Positions 4,425-27,708 of a stretch of DNA of 64,000 bases are shown here, one piece after another. Each line of letters opens with the position of its first letter. Position 1 is the first letter of the stretch. The notes under the pieces were generated by a model. The model saw only the letters and a program-made list of their open reading frames with translations. It was not told the DNA's origin and did not search any database. Position numbers and translations under genes: made by a program. This DNA comes from Candidatus Bathyarchaeota archaeon (GTDB taxonomy: Archaea; Thermoproteota; Bathyarchaeia; TCS64): the NCBI GenBank assembly GCA_030739585.1, contig JASLYX010000003.1, positions 39,812 through 103,811 on the forward strand. The letters are read 5' to 3'.

Positions 4425-4831
4425 ATGGTCCTTTAACTTCATCGTCATAATATTGCCGTCAATACCCTGGGGGTCAGTGCGCCACCAGGCTTGAGGTTGA
4501 AACCCGGCGAGATGACTCTCGAGGAATCCCAGCATATGCCTGAAAAAGTAAGGAGACTATATGCTGACGACGACTCCATGGCTGAGGCATTCTCTAAAGC
4601 GTGGTCATTCATCGCTCTACTGGATGAGCGGAGTGTTACGGGTCAACGGTTCAGCACAAAGTTTCTAGCAGATTATCTGGGGAAGAACGGGTGGGAGGCA
4701 GCTCTCGCGAATTGGACCCGCAAACCCACAAGGCGGTATACGTATCCTATGACTTCCCGGAGAGTGTGGAATACCAGACACGGGATGGAAAATACGCGGA
4801 GAGAAGATTCTCGTTTCAAAGGGATCAATGA
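4425..4831 (+). pseudogene. C-terminal remnant of a short-chain dehydrogenase/reductase
   Basis: L*LHRHNIAVNTLG and SVTGQRF resemble the SDR motifs ELxxHNIxVN and ITGQ; in-frame TAA at 4434-4436; frameshift near 4715 into DPQTHKAVYVSYDFPESVEYQTRDGK; no N-terminal Rossmann motif. Confidence 0.5.
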
Positions 4832-9941: not shown

Positions 9942-11090
9942 TTAAAGCTGGAACTGCTCCCGGTCATAGTTAGTGAGGAACTCGGCCCGGTTCTTGTGGA
10001 TAAGGACCATGTCTTCGACTCTGAGGTAGTATTCCCCTGCCTTCCAGAGCTTAGGCTCCAGGCACATCACCATCCCCTCCTGAAGCTCCTGCATATTATC
10101 GGGCTTGAGCCAAGGGTTCTCATGGACCTCGACCCCGATCTGGTGGCCCACCGTACCATCGGAAAGCCTCGCTCTCAGATGGTCCCCGTAACCATCCTTA
10201 TCTAAGAAGCCCTCTATGATGGGGAAAACGTCGCAAACCCTCATACTCCCCTCGTACATCTTGTCTACTGTCTTCACCACTGCACTCTGAAGAGCCACGT
10301 AGCCCTTCCTTATATCCTCCCCCACGGGGCCCCAATAGAGGCTTCTCCCCCAATCACTGCAATAGCCGTCCAAAACGAATCCCACATCCAAGGCGATGCT
10401 GGTCCCGGCCACCAAACCCTCATCCCTTGGGTAGCTGTTAGGCTCCGGCGTGGGCTCTGAGCCATTCTTGATGAAGAGACCGGTGGGTGGAAAGGATACA
10501 TCCGTTACTCCAGCCTTCCGCCCTAGCATATCGATGAATATACTTAACTCGTTCTGGGTGATTCCAGACTCAATTTCTGGGATGACGTCCCCCATGACAT
10601 TCTCAGTCAACCGGGCCACCCTCCTGAGGGCCTCGATCTCCCCGGGATCCTTGATCATCCGGAGATCATCCATCAGCGATGAGGCCCCTCGGAACCTAGC
10701 CCCAGGGAAGGATCTTGCCACCTCAATCCATGTGGAGCCGAAGACGTGTTCCCCGACCCCGATCCTCCCCGCCCTCCAGTCCAAGTCACTAGCCACCTTC
10801 TTCACTAGGTCAGTATAACTCTCCTCCTTTTCAAGGACCCGTGTGTCTCCTATCCACGAGGCCTTGCCGTGCCTCCCAGATCTCTGGGATAATGTGAGAA
10901 CTGGCGCCCCCTCTTGGGGGACAAAGACATTATCATCGGAATGCATCAGATCGACTCCCCCCCTCCACTTAATGGGAAGCCCCGTTATGTACTGGAAATT
11001 CTGGCACGAACCGTAGACAACAAGGTCAATGCCCTCCGCCAACATCCTCTCCTGGAGGCCCGCCAGTCTCCGGCTGAAATTCATCACCAA
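9942..11090 (-). CDS. M24 family Xaa-Pro peptidase
   Basis: LRMIKDPGEI, LDVG...GYCSD, GHQIGVEVHE, CLEP, RVED metal ligands. Confidence 0.9.
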   Translation of the reverse strand: MVMNFSRRLAGLQERMLAEGIDLVVYGSCQNFQYITGLPIKWRGGVDLMHSDDNVFVPQEGAPVLTLSQRSGRHGKASWIGDTRVLEKEESYTDLVKKVASDLDWRAGRIGVGEHVFGSTWIEVARSFPGARFRGASSLMDDLRMIKDPGEIEALRRVARLTENVMGDVIPEIESGITQNELSIFIDMLGRKAGVTDVSFPPTGLFIKNGSEPTPEPNSYPRDEGLVAGTSIALDVGFVLDGYCSDWGRSLYWGPVGEDIRKGYVALQSAVVKTVDKMYEGSMRVCDVFPIIEGFLDKDGYGDHLRARLSDGTVGHQIGVEVHENPWLKPDNMQELQEGMVMCLEPKLWKAGEYYLRVEDMVLIHKNRAEFLTNYDREQFQL

Positions 11091-18976: not shown

Positions 18977-19903
18977 ATGAAGCGCATCGAGCAGATGCGT
19001 CTAAAATCCGGGATGACCGTCGGCGAGCTAGCTGAGGAAATGCGCCGGGCCGGGGTTATTGGCGCAGGTAGAGTCGGCAGGGCAGTCGAAATTGTCGCGG
19101 AGATGTTCTCTGATCCGGATTATTTGACGTTTATTACCCTCTCGGGGCCGTTGGTACCAAGCGGGATGCGCCTCATATTCAGGGACCTCATCATGGAGGG
19201 CTATGTAGACGCCGTGGTCTCCAATGGGGCTAACCTAGTTCACGATATTGTAGAGGCAATAGGACGGAGACACCTAGTGGGTGAGTTAAACGTCGACGAC
19301 CAAGTACTCCTAGAAAAGGGAATCAACAGGGCCTATGATATTTTCATCAAGAGCGATACCTGGGCCGCCCTAGAGGAGTATATCGGCGGAGTCCTCGACA
19401 ATATCCCAGAGGAGGGGAGGGTCGGGATACCTATCCACGGGCTGATAAGGGAGATTGGGCTCAGTATCGAGGATGATGGCTCAATTCTCAGGGCGGCGAC
19501 CCGGAAGGGAGTGCCCATCTTCAGCCCTGGATTTTTGGACTCAATGATCGGGATCCCCCTCTGGATGTACTCCAAAAGAAAAAAGCTAGTTATCAACCCC
19601 ATCAAGGACTTTGATCTCCTTGGGGAGATGGTCTACGACGCTAGAAAGTCGGGGGCCATCATCCTAGGCGGTGGGACCCCGAAGCACCATACGCAATATA
19701 TGAATACCCTAAGGGAAGGGCTAGACGCTGCAGTGCAGATAAGCTCGGCTCGGGTTGAAGATGGGAGCCTAAGCGGAGCGCCCTTGAAGGAGGCGATAAG
19801 CTGGGGAAAGCTCAAGGAAGGGAAGACCTCCACTATATTCGGGGACGTTACAATCGTCTTCCCATTAATAGTTGCGGCTGCCCTCGAAAAGATAAACGGT
19901 TAG
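18977..19903 (+). CDS. dys: deoxyhypusine synthase
   Basis: ITLSGPLVPSG, GGGTPKHH, GSLSGAPLKEAISWGK with the catalytic Lys; follows eif5a. Confidence 0.95.
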   Translation: MKRIEQMRLKSGMTVGELAEEMRRAGVIGAGRVGRAVEIVAEMFSDPDYLTFITLSGPLVPSGMRLIFRDLIMEGYVDAVVSNGANLVHDIVEAIGRRHLVGELNVDDQVLLEKGINRAYDIFIKSDTWAALEEYIGGVLDNIPEEGRVGIPIHGLIREIGLSIEDDGSILRAATRKGVPIFSPGFLDSMIGIPLWMYSKRKKLVINPIKDFDLLGEMVYDARKSGAIILGGGTPKHHTQYMNTLREGLDAAVQISSARVEDGSLSGAPLKEAISWGKLKEGKTSTIFGDVTIVFPLIVAAALEKING

Positions 19904-19987: not shown

Positions 19988-20998
19988 ATGGGCGATGCAT
20001 TCCCAGTAGTGAAAGCAGCCGTAGTACAGGCCTCCCCCATCCTCTTTGATCGTGAGGCAACGAGTGAAAAGGCCCTCCATTTGATCTCTGAAGCCGCGCT
20101 AAACGGATCCAAACTAATCCTCTTTCCTGAGGCATTCATTCCGGCATATCCTAGAGGATTAAGCTTCGGCACTGTTGTGGGCGGCCGGAAACCTGAGGGA
20201 CGTCTGACCTGGGAGAGATACTGGACAAACTCGGTGGACGTGCCTGGACCCACCACCGATATATTGGGGGAGGCGGCGAGGAAAGCCGGTGCCTACCTAG
20301 CTATTGGGGTAATTGAGCGGGACAGTCAGTACAGTCGCGGCACTCTTTACTGCACGCTTCTCTACTTCGGGCCTGATGGCCGGCTGTTGGGCAAGCATCG
20401 GAAAATCATGCCCACAGCCGCAGAGCGGCTGATCTGGGGAGTCGGAGATGGCAGCACATTAACCACGATAGATACGGAGATCGGGACCCTTGGAGGATTG
20501 ATCTGCTGGGAGAACTATATGCCCCTGGCCAGGACCTTCATGTACAGCAAGGGCGTGGAGATCTATCTTGCCCCTACAGCCGACGCCCGGGAACGGTGGA
20601 ACAGCACCCTCCGACATATCGCCTTGGAGGGGCGTTGCTTTGTCCTAGGTTGCAACCAGTATGTAACCAAGAGCATGTACCCCGAGGACCTAGAGGGGAT
20701 TCAGGACCTCAAGGAGTACCCTGAGACGGTATGCCGGGGAGGAAGTGTCATCATCTCCCCTTTGGGTGACGTGTTAGAGGGTCCCCTCTACGATCGGGAG
20801 GGCATTCTATACGCCGACCTGGATCTTGCTCAAGTGGTACGGGGTCGTTTCGATTTCGATGCTGTTGGTCATTATTCTCGACCCGATATCTTTCAGCTGC
20901 AGGTAGACGAGCGCTCAAAGCCAACAGTTCTCTCAACCGGCGTCCCATTTAAATCGCTCAAGAGATCCAATGAAACTGTAACAAATAAAAACACCTGA
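19988..20998 (+). CDS. nitrilase / carbon-nitrogen hydrolase
   Basis: E-K-C triad: FPEAF, HRKIMPT, ICWEN; DAVGHYSRPD. Confidence 0.95.
   Translation: MGDAFPVVKAAVVQASPILFDREATSEKALHLISEAALNGSKLILFPEAFIPAYPRGLSFGTVVGGRKPEGRLTWERYWTNSVDVPGPTTDILGEAARKAGAYLAIGVIERDSQYSRGTLYCTLLYFGPDGRLLGKHRKIMPTAAERLIWGVGDGSTLTTIDTEIGTLGGLICWENYMPLARTFMYSKGVEIYLAPTADARERWNSTLRHIALEGRCFVLGCNQYVTKSMYPEDLEGIQDLKEYPETVCRGGSVIISPLGDVLEGPLYDREGILYADLDLAQVVRGRFDFDAVGHYSRPDIFQLQVDERSKPTVLSTGVPFKSLKRSNETVTNKNT
20672..20755 (+). repeat. 84-bp perfect direct repeat, copy 1 (inside the nitrilase gene)
   Basis: AGCATGTACC...GTCATCATC is identical to 23016-23099; the flanks differ on both sides. Confidence 0.95.
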
Positions 20999-21361
20999 CG
21001 GGAAAACCGTTTCTAGTGGTGCGCGAGGGTGCAGACCCACCGTGGTACGCCCTTGAGCACTTGTCTAAGGTCAAAATAATCTCCATGACAACCTTTTCTC
21101 TTTGATACTGCATGGGATCCAGGAGGAGCTCTCTCTTGCCATCATCCACTAAACTCAACTTAGAGGAGATGTTATCTATCTACTTTTCTTAGCTCCCGCT
21201 TTCTCCATGGCAATCAGGGTCTCCTTGGAGGCCCCCCGTAAGGACTTGGGTTGTCCTTCTTACTATAGGCCCTGAAACACAGGGTCGTCGTCAGGGTTTG
21301 AGCGGTCTCGGGTTGGCTTGTCTCCCGCTTTTTAGCGTCGGATTTTCATAAAAAGTAAAAT

Positions 21362-22744
21362 ATGGTAAAGTCAAACTCTGAAAGGATCCCGTTGACTTGG
21401 ACGCCGGTACCCTTGGGCAGATGGCTGAAGATGTTCCTTGGAATGGGCTTGTTGTTGAGCTGTTTGTTCCTAGCTGGCAGATCGGTTTTACGCCAATCCT
21501 CAAGCCTAGATATAGATGAATCTTTACAACCTAAACCAACCCCTTCATCCTCACCTTCACCAAGTCCAAGTCCAAGTCCAAGTCCAAGTCCAAGTCCAAG
21601 TCCAAGTCCAAGTCCAAGTCCAAGTCCAAGTCCAAGTCCAACCCCTGACCCTAAACCTGACCTCTTCACCGGGGGGCATTACACGATTTATCAGGGCGGC
21701 GGGGGATACGGGTTTTATCAGGGCGAGCTTCGTCGGGAGGGGGAGACCTCCCCGGATGCGAGTTATATCATCCAGAGGGTGTTTGAGTTGGCGAGGGGGG
21801 GTGGGAAGATCGTTCTCCGGAAGGGGGTCTACCGTCTATCGAGGGGGCTGGTGATCCGGGAGGGGTGGCATTTCTACCTGGAGGGGGACGACGAGTACTC
21901 CACCATCCTACTGTACTCGGGGGAGCCTGCCCTGTATATTCTGCAGCTTCAGGGGAACAACCAGGGGACCAGGCTGAGTGGTTTCACTCTCTCGGGTTCC
22001 GAGGCTCGGGTGGCGCTCATCGTCAACACGACGTCCTATCAGAGTCTTGTGGAGCTCGACCATCTCCAGATAGGCTGGAATTATCGCTACGATGAGTGGG
22101 GCGGCGAGTACGAAAGGACGGACTTTGGCCTCTTCGTTTACATGAGCGATGTGTTGAGGGTCTCCGATTCGGATATTTACGGGAACGACGTCGCGGTGAG
22201 GATCGGCTCCGGGACGGATATGTTCTTCACGGATACGGATTTCGCGGTGCTGCCCATCGGGGGGGAGAAGTACAGGATAGGTTTCTGGGCCAACACGGTG
22301 GCCAACGATGGGTGGGGGATGAGAGTCTTCGAGGGCACGGTCTACATCTCCCGGTGCACCAACAACGCTCCCCTCTCCACGGGGTACCTGCTGAGGAGTT
22401 TCGCGCATCTGAGCGACAGCTACATGGAGAACGGGCGGAATCCGTTGGTGTGTGAGAACGCGGTGTTCAACGTCGAGAACAGCAACTTCATGAGTGAACC
22501 CGGCACTGTCGCGGTCATCAACGCCATGGGGAGCACGGGGTTCTTCGAGAACAATTTCGTCACGATCCATCCCGAGAACACGGAGATAATGTACCTCCTC
22601 GCCCACAGCTTCGACACCCCCACCGGGATGATCCATTTCAAGGACATCCGGGTTTTCGACTATGCCGGGAATCTGCCTGCGGAGTATTTTCTTGGGAACC
22701 CTGAGCACAGGGTCACGTCGGATATAATAATCGATGTTCCCTGA
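21362..22744 (+). CDS. membrane-anchored protein with Pro/Ser stalk and right-handed beta-helix (pectin-lyase-like) domain
   Basis: Hydrophobic N-terminal segment, (PS)n linker, DASYIIQRVFELARGGGKIVLRKGVY beta-helix cap motif, repeated short beta strands. Confidence 0.75.
   Translation: MVKSNSERIPLTWTPVPLGRWLKMFLGMGLLLSCLFLAGRSVLRQSSSLDIDESLQPKPTPSSSPSPSPSPSPSPSPSPSPSPSPSPSPSPSPTPDPKPDLFTGGHYTIYQGGGGYGFYQGELRREGETSPDASYIIQRVFELARGGGKIVLRKGVYRLSRGLVIREGWHFYLEGDDEYSTILLYSGEPALYILQLQGNNQGTRLSGFTLSGSEARVALIVNTTSYQSLVELDHLQIGWNYRYDEWGGEYERTDFGLFVYMSDVLRVSDSDIYGNDVAVRIGSGTDMFFTDTDFAVLPIGGEKYRIGFWANTVANDGWGMRVFEGTVYISRCTNNAPLSTGYLLRSFAHLSDSYMENGRNPLVCENAVFNVENSNFMSEPGTVAVINAMGSTGFFENNFVTIHPENTEIMYLLAHSFDTPTGMIHFKDIRVFDYAGNLPAEYFLGNPEHRVTSDIIIDVP
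21560..21640 (+). repeat. (CCAAGT)13 hexanucleotide microsatellite encoding Pro-Ser
   Basis: 13 perfect units at 21560-21637 plus CCA, counted directly. Confidence 0.97.
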
Positions 22745-23015
22745 ATGGGATCGGTGACCTAGCTCCGGCCAAGGGGAGATGCGCCGCGTGCGGGGACTTT
22801 TACTTCGACGGGGACGCCTCAAGGCTCCTGGACTTCAGGCTAAGAGTTGGGTAGTCTGGCGTGGGTCGCCATGGCTCGTTGGGCTGTTGGCCTAGAAGAT
22901 GCCGAAGAAAAGCCTCAGGAATCAGATGAAGATCCTGAGGGGTAGCAGGGCTAGGTTCACTATGAGGCCGACGAAGATCCCGATGCTCATGACGGAGAGG
23001 GATACGAGCCCCAGC

Positions 23016-23330
23016 AGCATGTACCCCGAGGACCTAGAGGGGATTCAGGACCTCAAGGAGTACCCTGAGACGGTATGCCGGGGAGGAAGTGTCATCATCG
23101 CTCCTCTTGGCGAGGAGCTGGCGGGGCCCCTTTACGACAGTGAGGGCATCCTGTATGCCGATCTGGATCTGGCCCAGGTGGTACGTAGCCGCTTCGACTT
23201 CGATGTTGTTGGCCACTATTCTCGCCCAGACATCTTTCAGCTGCTGGTCGACGAACGCTCCAAGCCATCCGTCCTTTCAAGGGTAGGAGGTCCGGCTGAG
23301 TCGCGCACGGAAATCGATGAAACGGAATAA
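23016..23330 (+). pseudogene. orphan 3' fragment of a nitrilase, starting at 84-bp repeat copy 2 (23016-23099)
   Basis: SMYPEDLEG...DVVGHYSRPD...DETE*; lacks the whole catalytic triad; upstream sequence is unrelated. Confidence 0.9.
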
Positions 23331-23370: not shown

Positions 23371-23535
23371 TCACGCGAGGAACTTGAGGGCGTTTTCCCC
23401 GAGTACGAGGGATTTCTGCTCGTCGGTGAGGAGCGGGAGCTCGCTGATCCTCTCTGCTTTTGCGTCTGAACACCCTGCCGCCTTGAATGACGCCAAGGAG
23501 ATCCGACTCAACCTTTCCGCTGATATCGTGACCAT
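23371..23535 (-). pseudogene. 54-aa chimeric deletion scar: Ldh_2-like N-terminus fused to an amidohydrolase-like C-terminus
   Basis: MVTISAERLSRISLASFKAAGCSDAKAERI joined to SELPLLTDEQKSLVLGENALKFLA*. Confidence 0.55.
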
Positions 23536-23681
23536 GTTATTACAACCTTAACGAGAAGTTTGTCGTCAAATCGTATAAGGTATCTCATAGGTGGAGCGTC
23601 GGGTCATTCGCGTCTAAGGGGGCAGCGCGCGCGGCCCATATTCTTTTCTTGACTTTCGGCAATGTACATTGTGAAGTTTCT

Positions 23682-24227
23682 TTGGTTAATTACGTCTATA
23701 TTGCTGCAAGTCTGGATGGTTTCATCGCCACAAAAGACGGGGGTCTCGACTGGCTTAATGAGATTCCTAATCCAGATCAAACCGATTACAGGTACGCTGA
23801 GTTCAATAGTGGTATCGATGCTATCGTGATGGGAAGAAATACATTTGAAAAAGTCTTGACCTTTGGTTTCTGGCCATATGATAAGCCTGTATTTGTTCTT
23901 AGTCATACTCTTGAAAGTGTACCCGATGACATTGTTGGTAAAGCTGAAATCGTTAAGGGTGATTTGAGGAATCTTCTTGACAAGCTGAAGAAACGAGGGC
24001 TTCAGAATCTCTACATTGATGGAGGGCGCGTTATTCAGAGCTTTCTCGAAGAGGACCTTATAGACGAAATGATCATTACGAGGGTTCCGATTCTGCTTGG
24101 GGAGGGCATTCCGTTATTCGGTAAAATTGAGAACAGTTTGAAGTTTAGCCTTAAGAAGACTGAGGGCTTCAATGAAACACTCGTTAAAAATCATTACATC
24201 CGCGTACGTGAGAAGAACCAGAGTTGA
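23682..24227 (+). CDS. dihydrofolate reductase family (RibD C-terminal-like) protein
   Basis: YIAASLDGFIA, IVMGRNTFE, LYIDGG, LIDEMIITRVPILLGEG; likely TTG start at 23682. Confidence 0.9.
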   Translation: MVNYVYIAASLDGFIATKDGGLDWLNEIPNPDQTDYRYAEFNSGIDAIVMGRNTFEKVLTFGFWPYDKPVFVLSHTLESVPDDIVGKAEIVKGDLRNLLDKLKKRGLQNLYIDGGRVIQSFLEEDLIDEMIITRVPILLGEGIPLFGKIENSLKFSLKKTEGFNETLVKNHYIRVREKNQS

Positions 24228-24256
24228 CAAAGAACCCTGATGTGCGCGCAACGGGG

Positions 24257-24381
24257 AAGAACATTCTCCGGTGTGAGGACCCGTATTCATATTCTCAGTA
24301 AAAGTCTTTCAATGCTTCTCGCGTCTCTGTGGGGAAGTCTCTCAGGGGTGAAATCGTGGTCATAGAATCACGTATTATTCT
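24257..24381 (-). pseudogene. possible Orc1/Cdc6 N-terminal remnant
   Basis: RIIRD / DHDFTPERLPHRD ... PENVL with a frameshift and a stop; resembles the Cdc6 pattern PxxLPHRE...PxN; no Walker A. Confidence 0.35.
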
Positions 24382-24462: not shown

Positions 24463-25227
24463 ATGGTTCAGCTTGCCGAGAAGTCGTGGCCCGAGGCGGG
24501 AAAGATCTTCGAGGAGAACGATGTTGCGATCCTCCCGGTGGGGAGCACGGAGCAGCACGGCCCCCACAACCCCCTGGGGACAGACCACCTCATAGCTTCG
24601 AGGATGTCCTTAGAGGTGGGGGAGAGGACCGGAGTCCCCGTGCTCCCTTTGATCCCGGTGGGGGTCTCCGTCCACCACAGGCAGTTCCCGGGGTCCCTCT
24701 GGGTGCCTCCCGCTGTCTTTAGGGACTACATAAGGGCAATCGCCCTGTCCGTTGCAAGCCACGGTATCAGGAAGCTTTTGGTGATCAACGGTCACGGGGG
24801 GAACACTCCGAGCCTTATGGAGGTCGCCGGGGAGCTCCGGAGGGAGCACGGGGTTTTCGCGGCTGTCGCCTCCGCCTTTCCGCCGATGGATGGCCATGCG
24901 GGGGAGGGGGAGACCAGCGCCAACCTCTACTTCCACGGCCACCTCGTGGATATGTCCAAGGCAGTGGACACGAAGCAGAACGAGGAGCTGGGAGGCCTCA
25001 AGGTCGAGGGATTCAACTTCATCTACCCGGGGAGATTCGCATGGGACACCCCTGATCTGAGCCCCACCGGGGTGATAGGGAACGCCGGGGTCACCATCAG
25101 AGCCACCACCGCTTCCGAGGAGAAGGGCCGGGAGGCCATGGAGCTCCACATCGACGACCTATGTGCCCTGGTGGAGGAGCTGAAGAAGGCGGAGATTAAA
25201 GGGCTCCTTCCAAAGCCACATAAATGA
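24463..25227 (+). CDS. creatininase / creatinine amidohydrolase family protein
   Basis: PVGSTEQHGPHNPLGTD, NGHGGN, HAGEGETS. Confidence 0.9.
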   Translation: MVQLAEKSWPEAGKIFEENDVAILPVGSTEQHGPHNPLGTDHLIASRMSLEVGERTGVPVLPLIPVGVSVHHRQFPGSLWVPPAVFRDYIRAIALSVASHGIRKLLVINGHGGNTPSLMEVAGELRREHGVFAAVASAFPPMDGHAGEGETSANLYFHGHLVDMSKAVDTKQNEELGGLKVEGFNFIYPGRFAWDTPDLSPTGVIGNAGVTIRATTASEEKGREAMELHIDDLCALVEELKKAEIKGLLPKPHK

Positions 25228-27622: not shown

Positions 27623-27708
27623 TGGTGCGGGAGGTGGGACTCGAACCCACGGAGGACTAGTCCATCAGGACCTGAACCTGACCCCTTTGGCCACTCGGGA
27701 ACCCCCGC
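27623..27708 (-). tRNA. tRNA-Leu(CAG), intron-less, encoded CCA
   Basis: Acceptor stem GCGGGGG/CTCCCGC, anticodon arm TCAGG-TTCAGGT-CCTGA, long variable arm GGAC-TA-GTCC, T arm GTGGG-TTCGAGT-CCCAC, ACCA end. Confidence 0.97.

Follow-up and report, generated by a model that had tools for sequence, protein, structure and literature searches.

A direct repeat within a nitrilase gene at the edge of a probable small flexible islet in uncultured marine archaea

How does an enzyme gene come to be followed, a short distance downstream, by a second copy of its own 3' end? The question is raised by a stretch of 64,000 nucleotides from a Candidatus Bathyarchaeota archaeon (NCBI GenBank assembly GCA_030739585.1, contig JASLYX010000003.1, positions 39,812 to 103,811 of the forward strand), hereafter the window, in whose numbering positions are given unless another contig is named. 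In it, an intact nitrilase gene and a displaced nitrilase 3' fragment share a perfect 84-bp direct repeat, R, and a 2.3-kb insert lies between them. A preliminary description of the window took the insert for foreign DNA anchored by homology in the nitrilase gene and possibly excisable. We find instead that the locus is best explained as a small flexible islet between the nitrilase and a creatininase gene, shaped by illegitimate and homologous recombination, a reading to which we assign a probability of about 0.7. The locus is no mobile cassette and no programmed toggle, and the event behind it is of a well-documented, ordinary kind. The argument turns on the following features (aa, amino acids):

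19988..20998, plus strand: nitrilase, intact, 336 aa, with the "A" C-terminus (PF00795, E 6.7e-54)
20672..20755, plus strand: left copy of R, 84 bp, in frame, nitrilase codons 229-256
20756..20998, plus strand: A tail, the nitrilase 3' end that follows the left copy
23016..23021, plus strand: microhomology AGCATG, common to a membrane-protein gene and the nitrilase (from comparison of the junction sequences)
23016..23099, plus strand: right copy of R, 84 bp
23100..23330, plus strand: B tail, a displaced nitrilase 3' fragment without catalytic residues

The two nitrilase tails and their lineages

The copies of R (20672-20755 and 23016-23099) are identical and in direct orientation, with a spacing of 2344 bp; the chance expectation for a perfect 84-bp repeat in 64 kb is about 5e-42. 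Homology extends past R to about 20936/23280, at 84% over 265-270 nucleotides (nt). Across the 56 codons that follow R, 48 residues are identical and 8 differ, 24 of the 48 shared codons are synonymously changed, and 28 of the 37 differences among 168 nt fall at third positions, while the final 20-24 residues of the two tails bear no relation to each other. The preliminary description had given the coordinates, the 84 bp, the 28 codons and the spacing, as well as the 48 of 56 shared residues, the 24 synonymous changes and the unrelated tails, and every one of these values is reproduced exactly. The dead copy comprises the last 105 codons of the gene, about 2 kb beyond the intact one. It begins abruptly at 23016, within a spurious 143-aa open reading frame (ORF; 22899-23330) whose first 38 codons are antisense to a minus-strand ORF. 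The motifs FPE, HRK and CWEN, which we take to be those of the Glu-Lys-Cys nitrilase triad, all lie in residues 1-228, that is, in the 5' part. The upstream nitrilase is evidently intact and the downstream 3' fragment evidently a relic.

Which of the two tails is native? Comparison at the protein level could not place the 5' part in the A or the B lineage, and codon-level DNA was used together with the flanking genes. Alleles were recovered by exact-protein look-ups in public contigs (labelled L001 and so on; proteins P0123 and so on). Three contigs, L176, L177 and L178, represent outgroup lineages, and L190 a sister population. The flanking features that enter the comparison are:

18977..19903, plus strand: deoxyhypusine synthase (DHS), conserved left flank (PF01916, E 1.4e-91)
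23371..23457, minus strand: Amidohydro_2 remnant, last 28 codons (full 312 aa in L181, L182, L185 and the outgroups)
23649..24227, plus strand: RibD_C-family reductase in a low-GC patch (PF01872)
24463..25227, plus strand: creatininase, right end of the imported block

The DHS gene of the window is 80.3% identical to that of L176, 81.0% to that of L178 and 99.1% to that of L190. Its nitrilase 5' part reaches 82.3%, 81.5% and 85.2%, and its A tail 72.2%, 75.0% and 80.6%, to L176, L177 and L178 respectively, so that both are closest to L178. The B tail, on the other hand, is 88.3% identical to L177 and 77.8% to L178; the amidohydrolase of L181 is 89.0% identical to that of L177; and the creatininase of the window is 89.0% identical to that of L176 and 77.5% to that of L190, with 76.7% between L190 and L176. 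Given that the A tail and the 5' part stand at about 80%, like the backbone, whereas the B block reaches 88-89% to L176/L177, the A tail is evidently the backbone's own 3' end, forming with the 5' part one coherent distant lineage, and the B tail, the amidohydrolase and the creatininase evidently constitute a block imported from an L176/L177-like lineage. The polarity is thus the reverse of that first proposed, in which A tail and insert were foreign: the A tail co-diverges with the backbone and the B block has the affinity to another lineage. R itself is 79.8% identical to each of L176, L177 and L178 (17 mismatches in 84 positions), which fits its belonging to the backbone and not to the B lineage (P ~0.017 if it were of the latter).

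Compared with the sister population, the window shows a divergent block from 23100 to about 25270, with 72-82% identity across the creatininase, and returns to 95-99% from about 25273. The left crossover of the import lies exactly at 20755/20756 (equivalent to 23099/23100), and it is because this older crossover between lineages lies there that identity between the copies falls from 100% to 78% at the boundary of R and tail. The same boundary is present in alleles without the insert. A single event that made both ends of the 84 bp, as previously supposed, does not agree with this, since the right end is the boundary of the older block.

Alleles at the locus and the age of the join

At least six alleles segregate at the locus (T1, T2, T3, T4, X and Y), with flanks conserved at 98-99.9% and interiors that differ. 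T1, found in the window and in L001, carries the intact A-tail nitrilase, the insert and then the B fragment. In T2 (L179, L183 and L184) the amidohydrolase remnant, RibD_C and creatininase come immediately after a B-tail nitrilase. T3 (L181 and L182) has a 332-aa B-tail nitrilase, a full Amidohydro_2 gene (312 aa, minus strand), a 130-aa ORF and creatininase. The imported stretch in T3 comprises the B tail, the amidohydrolase, the 130-aa ORF and the creatininase, and its gene order matches the synteny of other lineages: L176 reads nitrilase, amidohydrolase, peptidase S9, creatininase, and the shorter L177 and L178 read nitrilase, then amidohydrolase. L180 encodes the 332-aa protein of T2 and T3 on a contig that stops 8 nt after the stop codon and is therefore either T2 or T3. 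T4 (L185) is A-type at 38 of 38 informative sites up to 20911 and B-type from 20917, and continues into the full amidohydrolase.

The 332-aa members of the 90%-identity nitrilase cluster (P0123, P0124 and P0128, encoded on L179-L184) have the same 5' part, the same 28 residues of R and the B tail; in alleles without the insert the B tail is the working 3' end. An intact nitrilase with the other C-terminus, which the preliminary description had expected from excision, thus exists in nature. Contigs of the T2 group differ from a window excised in silico by 1-6 mismatches over up to 1369 bases, and the B fragment of the window matches L179 and L180 at all sites but one. Alleles with and without the insert coexist in both populations, sometimes in the samples of one study, and loss and regain through the repeats would explain this coexistence. 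A nitrilase scan of genome and metagenome contigs returned, among the matches listed, only relatives of at most 77% identity, without close synteny.

What joins the insert to the second nitrilase copy? Between the A tail and the right copy of R lie:

20999..21361, no strand assigned: spacer without assignable gene (no Pfam or NCBIfam match)
21362..22744, plus strand: putative surface protein, 460 aa
21536..21659, plus strand: (CCAAGT)n tract encoding an (SP)n linker, 13 units
22798..22854, plus strand: NUDIX hydrolase 3' remnant, last 18 codons (FYFDGDASRLLDFRLRVG and stop), by homology to the NUDIX genes of L095 and L189
22922..23021, minus strand: membrane-protein gene remnant, 5'-truncated, codons 23-64 of 64, by comparison with the complete gene of L189

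The membrane-protein remnant is cut exactly where the nitrilase sequence starts, as comparison with L189 reveals. The truncated minus-strand membrane ORF noticed earlier at this junction is therefore what it seemed, for L189 holds the complete 64-aa gene. The parental sequences, CCCAG[C/T]AGCATG followed by AAGG in the membrane gene and ACCAAGAGCATG followed by TACC in the nitrilase, have AGCATG in common, which sits within an imperfect 11/13 match, CCA[GC/AG]AGCATG. The junction of the window reads CCCAGCAGCATGTACC, and the variant of the sister population, CCAAGAGCATG / GAACCCCAAGAGCATGTATCC, is nearly the same. A microhomology join had been suspected before at AGCATGTA; the join stands, at AGCATG within the 11/13 match and not at that exact sequence. 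There is a single head-to-tail junction, leading from the membrane remnant, which lies downstream, to codon 229 of the upstream nitrilase in the same orientation. Beyond it the second copy stays collinear for 265 nt in the window (84%) and, in the sister population, for 158 nt, of which 5 differ from the left copy of the window; it is then replaced or deleted.

The sister population, about 2% diverged from the window, comprises alleles X (L190-L192) and Y (L193-L196). Its nitrilase 5' part is 98.2% identical to that of the window (L190, 12 mismatches in 684), and the A-type tail of L190, with 2 mismatches in 74 nt, has diverged about as far as the backbone. A protein query for a circle-type junction (membrane remnant, R and full A tail) found none; it retrieved P0155, encoded on the four contigs of Y, which come from TARA, JGI and two ENA assemblies. 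Y shares with the window the surface-protein gene (98.0% over 858 nt), the NUDIX remnant and the membrane remnant, the last without its premature stop. After the junction comes R with an A-type tail, which reaches the position equivalent to 20829 and there meets a deletion junction; a remnant of peptidase S9 and a creatininase of backbone type follow. The direct repeats of Y measure 158 bp, compared with 84 bp in the window. Because the divergence of the insert is about that of the backbone, the insert predates the split of the two populations; it is old, not recent. X has DHS, then a nitrilase that the same 20829 junction cuts short to 317 aa, then creatininase. From R on, X and Y are identical over 3730 nt save R position 9. 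X, being Y minus the insert save one base, is the expected product of recombination between the repeats of Y. We lean towards Y having given rise to X, since the 20829 deletion is harmless in the redundant fragment of Y and truncates the sole nitrilase of X; in a possible reverse route, homologous recombination with another strain would have brought the insert, and with it an intact gene, into X.

Recombination at the islet and the alternatives

These observations can be arranged into a sequence of events. A recombinase-independent join at AGCATG linked the body of the membrane-protein gene to nitrilase codon 229, leaving a second, promoter-less nitrilase 3' end about 2 kb beyond the intact gene. 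The simplest route would be a within-species event, either head-to-tail duplication or copying from a template, because both joined partners look conspecific; capture of foreign DNA would not be needed. The same may be said of the homology anchor with duplication of 84 bp that was proposed earlier, as a tandem duplication or within-species templated copy fits equally well. The stretch from nitrilase codon 257 to the end of the creatininase was replaced homologously from a different lineage, and R owes its length of 84 bp to the backbone sequence that lies between the illegitimate join and this older crossover. Ordinary homologous recombination, either between the repeats (loss) or between strains through the 5' part and R (gain or swap), would then have produced T1-T4, X and Y. 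In addition, a surface-protein cassette replaced most of the NUDIX gene, and the low-GC RibD_C patch most of the amidohydrolase. The direct repeats would permit passive loss and regain of the 2.3 kb with no dedicated enzyme or regulation.

Several points weigh against this reading. The presumed parent (A-tail nitrilase, spacer, NUDIX, full membrane gene and no fragment) is on no contig recovered, and an event between conspecific donor and recipient gives the same product as an intragenomic duplication. The placement of R in the backbone depends on 17 mismatches in 84 positions. Single-nucleotide polymorphism (SNP) haplotypes in the flanks are reticulate and uninformative as to whether insert-free alleles are ancestral or excised; likewise T at 23100 in L179/L180 and the C that X has at R position 9 each represent the ancestral state and are not diagnostic of direction. 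Since L176-L178 all have nitrilase followed by amidohydrolase, the downstream region of the backbone must have been rearranged earlier, and the only trace of this is a weak amidohydrolase remnant (E 0.1). Lastly, metagenome contigs are population consensuses in which linkage over kilobases is uncertain, and the (CCAAGT)n tract is bridged by the window and L001 only, with 13 and 17 units.

Could the arrangement be an assembly chimera, with strains or paralogues mis-joined or collapsed through the 84-bp repeat or through (CCAAGT)n? The exact 336-aa nitrilase occurs on 15 public contigs, and in each of the ten that were fetched it has the A tail, with the DNA that lies downstream of it. Nine of these ten contigs end at 21296-21641, 300-650 bp past the gene and at or just short of (CCAAGT)n, and several haplotypes occur together in the same samples, as would suit a mis-join. 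However, both junctions recur in independent projects: the junction of membrane ORF, R and B tail (the 143-aa ORF) was found on five contigs from four other samples, and several junction-bearing contigs were assembled with k = 119-127, which exceeds the repeat. L001 (JGI 3300035202, 136 kb, assembled independently) runs through the entire region without a change of order, with 17 bases different from the window, so that two independent assemblies with different repeat counts bridge it. The left and right flanks adjoin in every other allele and in outgroup L176, and the sister population has the same architecture. Given that the junctions recur in independent assemblies with k above the repeat length and that L001 spans everything, a chimera is unlikely, to the point that we give it next to no weight. 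A decayed integrative element resembling e14, seated at the nitrilase 3' end with its integrase since lost and the 84 bp as attL and attR, has the layout in its favour. In E. coli K-12, according to the account in PMC13626634, which cites Hill et al. 1989, loss of e14 from icd/e14/icdC yields a chimeric intact icd, and both states are natural. As far as that account goes, the likeness is close: the insert lies between direct repeats, with an intact target gene at its left edge and a homologous 3' pseudogene, displaced from that gene, at its right, and insert-free alleles with a chimeric gene exist. Yet e14 is a 15-kb prophage that has its own integrase, is excised site-specifically upon SOS induction and supplies a foreign 3' end, whereas the window has 2.3 kb of cellular remnants with one cargo gene, a microhomology join and no recombinase that we could find. 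Pfam and NCBIfam matches revealed no integrase or transposase family in the ORFs of the insert or in called genes within about 10 kb, as had been noted before for integrase, and no integrase, excisionase or other element gene was found in any of the six alleles from two populations (2.3 kb, ~10 kb). The right junction does not mark the end of an element: it falls at 6 bp of microhomology within a gene that is recognisably cellular. The insert is pieced together from cellular remnants (NUDIX, membrane gene, possibly amidohydrolase), and the "replacement" 3' end is the backbone's own, so that the gene-proximal tail is native and the displaced fragment sits in the imported block, the opposite of e14. 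The parallel drawn in the preliminary description thus holds for the layout and fails for integrase, element ends and polarity, and we consider a lost element of this kind scarcely credible.

The preliminary description's own version, in which an insert-free genome (5' part, R and B tail) took up a foreign A tail with its cargo in a manner similar to homology-facilitated illegitimate recombination (HFIR), we regard as improbable. Insert-free B-tail alleles do exist, some with outgroup-like synteny (L181 and L182); both the join at a microhomology and the truncation of the membrane ORF are borne out; the B fragment, identical to L179/L180 save one site, implies that the window allele took its present form recently; and HFIR is described in Acinetobacter, S. 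pneumoniae and P. stutzeri with joints at 3-10 bp of microhomology, as summarised in PMC6382021 and its references, among them de Vries and Wackernagel 2002. The locus resembles HFIR, as that summary presents it, in having one novel joint at a short microhomology beside homology and no mobile-element functions. HFIR, however, is experimentally defined as RecA-dependent uptake of foreign single strands and normally replaces recipient DNA without duplicating the anchor, whereas here, in an uncultured archaeon, the partners look conspecific and the outcome is a duplication; the proposed parallel therefore stands for the joint and not for the replacement. Moreover, the A tail is of backbone type, and in the sister population its divergence keeps pace with that of the backbone; it is the B block, not the A tail, that shows affinity to a foreign lineage. 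The same junction with an A-type fragment occurs in a population about 2% diverged, so that the join predates the present pairing of A and B, and the boundary of R and tail, being found in insert-free alleles too, is no product of the insertion. A question remains, is the locus a selected, reversible switch at the population level, in which presence of the surface protein co-varies with the nitrilase C-terminus? It would be a toggle without recombinase, the 2.3 kb being repeatedly lost within the chromosome and regained from neighbours, perhaps as a 2344-bp circle through a single crossover in the 84 bp, with both states selected; if true, a surface protein would be paired with a different, filament-forming C-terminus of the nitrilase and both states would be maintained. 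The coexistence of both states in two populations, the relation of X to Y, the position of nitrilase residues 257 onward inside the part aligned to the helical-filament plant enzyme NIT4 (PDB 6i00) and the varying length of the surface-protein linker would all accord with it. On the other side, no recombinase and no inverted or specific sites were found (inverted repeats bracketing the region were absent from the window), the circle-type junction with a full A tail did not appear in the protein query, and excision cannot be reversed within a lineage without DNA from another cell. The insert-free state of the sister population leaves a truncated 317-aa nitrilase, which does not look like a designed alternative. 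L009 has two C>T SNPs in the left copy of R (its positions 10732 and 10762, window 20719 and 20749), the same bases as in the sister population, which are absent from the right copy in L092 of the same sample. The identity of the copies therefore seems not to be maintained; either R is imperfect in some strains or the two contigs derive from different strains. We consider such a switch very unlikely. Of the excisable, toggling cassette suggested in the preliminary description, loss by recombination between repeats is plausible and fits X and Y, and the machinery of a toggle is what falls away.

Returning to the islet reading, two further known phenomena bear on it. Tandem duplication or templated insertion at microhomology, with part of the second copy lost afterwards, leaves one head-to-tail joint, and the direct repeats that result are prone to homologous collapse. 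The window is alike in that the body of a downstream gene is joined to the interior of an upstream gene at a short microhomology; it differs in that the second copy stops matching after the nitrilase tail, and this calls for additional events, the block import in the window and the 20829 deletion in the sister population. In marine prokaryotes, flexible (replacement) genomic islands have crossovers in conserved flanking genes and many alleles, and metagenome contigs break there. Conserved flanks, a non-homologous or diverged interior and a surface-protein cargo are common to these islands and the window, whereas the latter is very small (0.3-4.5 kb) and one boundary lies inside an enzyme gene, with the consequence that one enzyme has different C-termini in different alleles. 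The class that fits best is a small flexible (replacement) islet with its left boundary within an enzyme gene. The locus offers neither a new mechanism nor the answer to a long-standing question. It is an unusually well-resolved natural case of illegitimate and homologous recombination remodelling the edge of a flexible patch in uncultured marine archaea, with six alleles from public metagenomes and at least seven breakpoints within about 4 kb. The alternative nitrilase C-termini are a by-product of recombination, and an e14-like layout with a perfect repeat can, as a warning, arise without a mobile element.

The insert, the enzyme and the neighbouring genes

The spacer (20999-21361) is identical across all insert-bearing contigs. 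Within it, tblastn weakly aligns 21063-21203 (minus strand) with Amidohydro_2 residues 54-100, at 38% identity and E 0.1 and with two stops in frame; the amidohydrolase that the backbone itself once had after its nitrilase may survive here in decayed form. The 460-aa protein that follows has an N-terminal hydrophobic anchor, the (SP)n linker and an all-beta C-terminal domain. The identity of this domain is taken from Pfam matches of its distant relatives, of which six of ten match the pectate-lyase-like family PF12708, three of them above the curated cutoff. A single-sequence AF2 model of the domain reached a pLDDT of 38 and was unusable. The (CCAAGT)n tract, in which most metagenome contigs break, varies in length in frame, from 13 units in the window and 17 in L001 to a much shorter tract in L004. 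The match of L006 to the window ends precisely where the surface-protein gene begins, at its start codon (21360-21362), and L095 (its positions 1-286) has an intact NUDIX C-terminus to the left of window position 22883 in place of the 3' part of the surface-protein gene. Because these contigs differ there, the gene is itself a swappable cassette within the insert. The segment of NUDIX and membrane gene has its nearest relative, the closest sequence recovered, in L189, another genome, at 83% identity; there a NUDIX gene (plus strand) and the complete 64-aa membrane-protein gene (minus strand) stand tail to tail, and the remnant in the window, keeping codons 23-64, is 82% identical in amino acids to the latter. 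The remnant carries a premature TGA at 22922-22924 (minus strand), where L095 has TGG and L194 TTG, which fits decay.

The CN_hydrolase domain of the window nitrilase fits branch 1 of the nitrilase superfamily (nitrilase / NIT4-like). Its closest solved structure is plant NIT4 (6i00; E 6.6e-105, residues 2-314), residues from 257 on included in the alignment, and its score against TIGR04048 is under the family cutoff, so that it is not an equivalog. Nitrilases from bacteria, among them Chloroflexota and Desulfobacterales, share 70-78% identity with the enzyme, and this, together with a plant enzyme as best solved relative, suggests that the family has been transferred between domains. P0126, in the nitrilase cluster, is a 337-aa B-tail variant whose last ~20 residues are frameshifted, either a natural C-terminal variant or a sequencing error.

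On the right side of the islet, the low-GC patch (23455-24336, GC 40-44%, with boundaries at ~23455 and ~24337) replaced most of Amidohydro_2 and the 130-aa ORF, both of which are intact in L181, L182 and L185; the RibD_C patch is a second, independent replacement in the islet. Farther out, the upstream genes are archaeal (STT3/AglB, aIF5A and DHS), and downstream of the creatininase follow cupin, DUF6198, HD and the glycine-cleavage H and T proteins. The sole tRNA of the window lies at 27623-27708. In L190, the 341 nt that separate the truncated nitrilase from the creatininase hold an N-terminal remnant of peptidase S9 (4604-4831 of that contig, minus strand) with an in-frame stop and 59% identity to L176 (E 9e-28).

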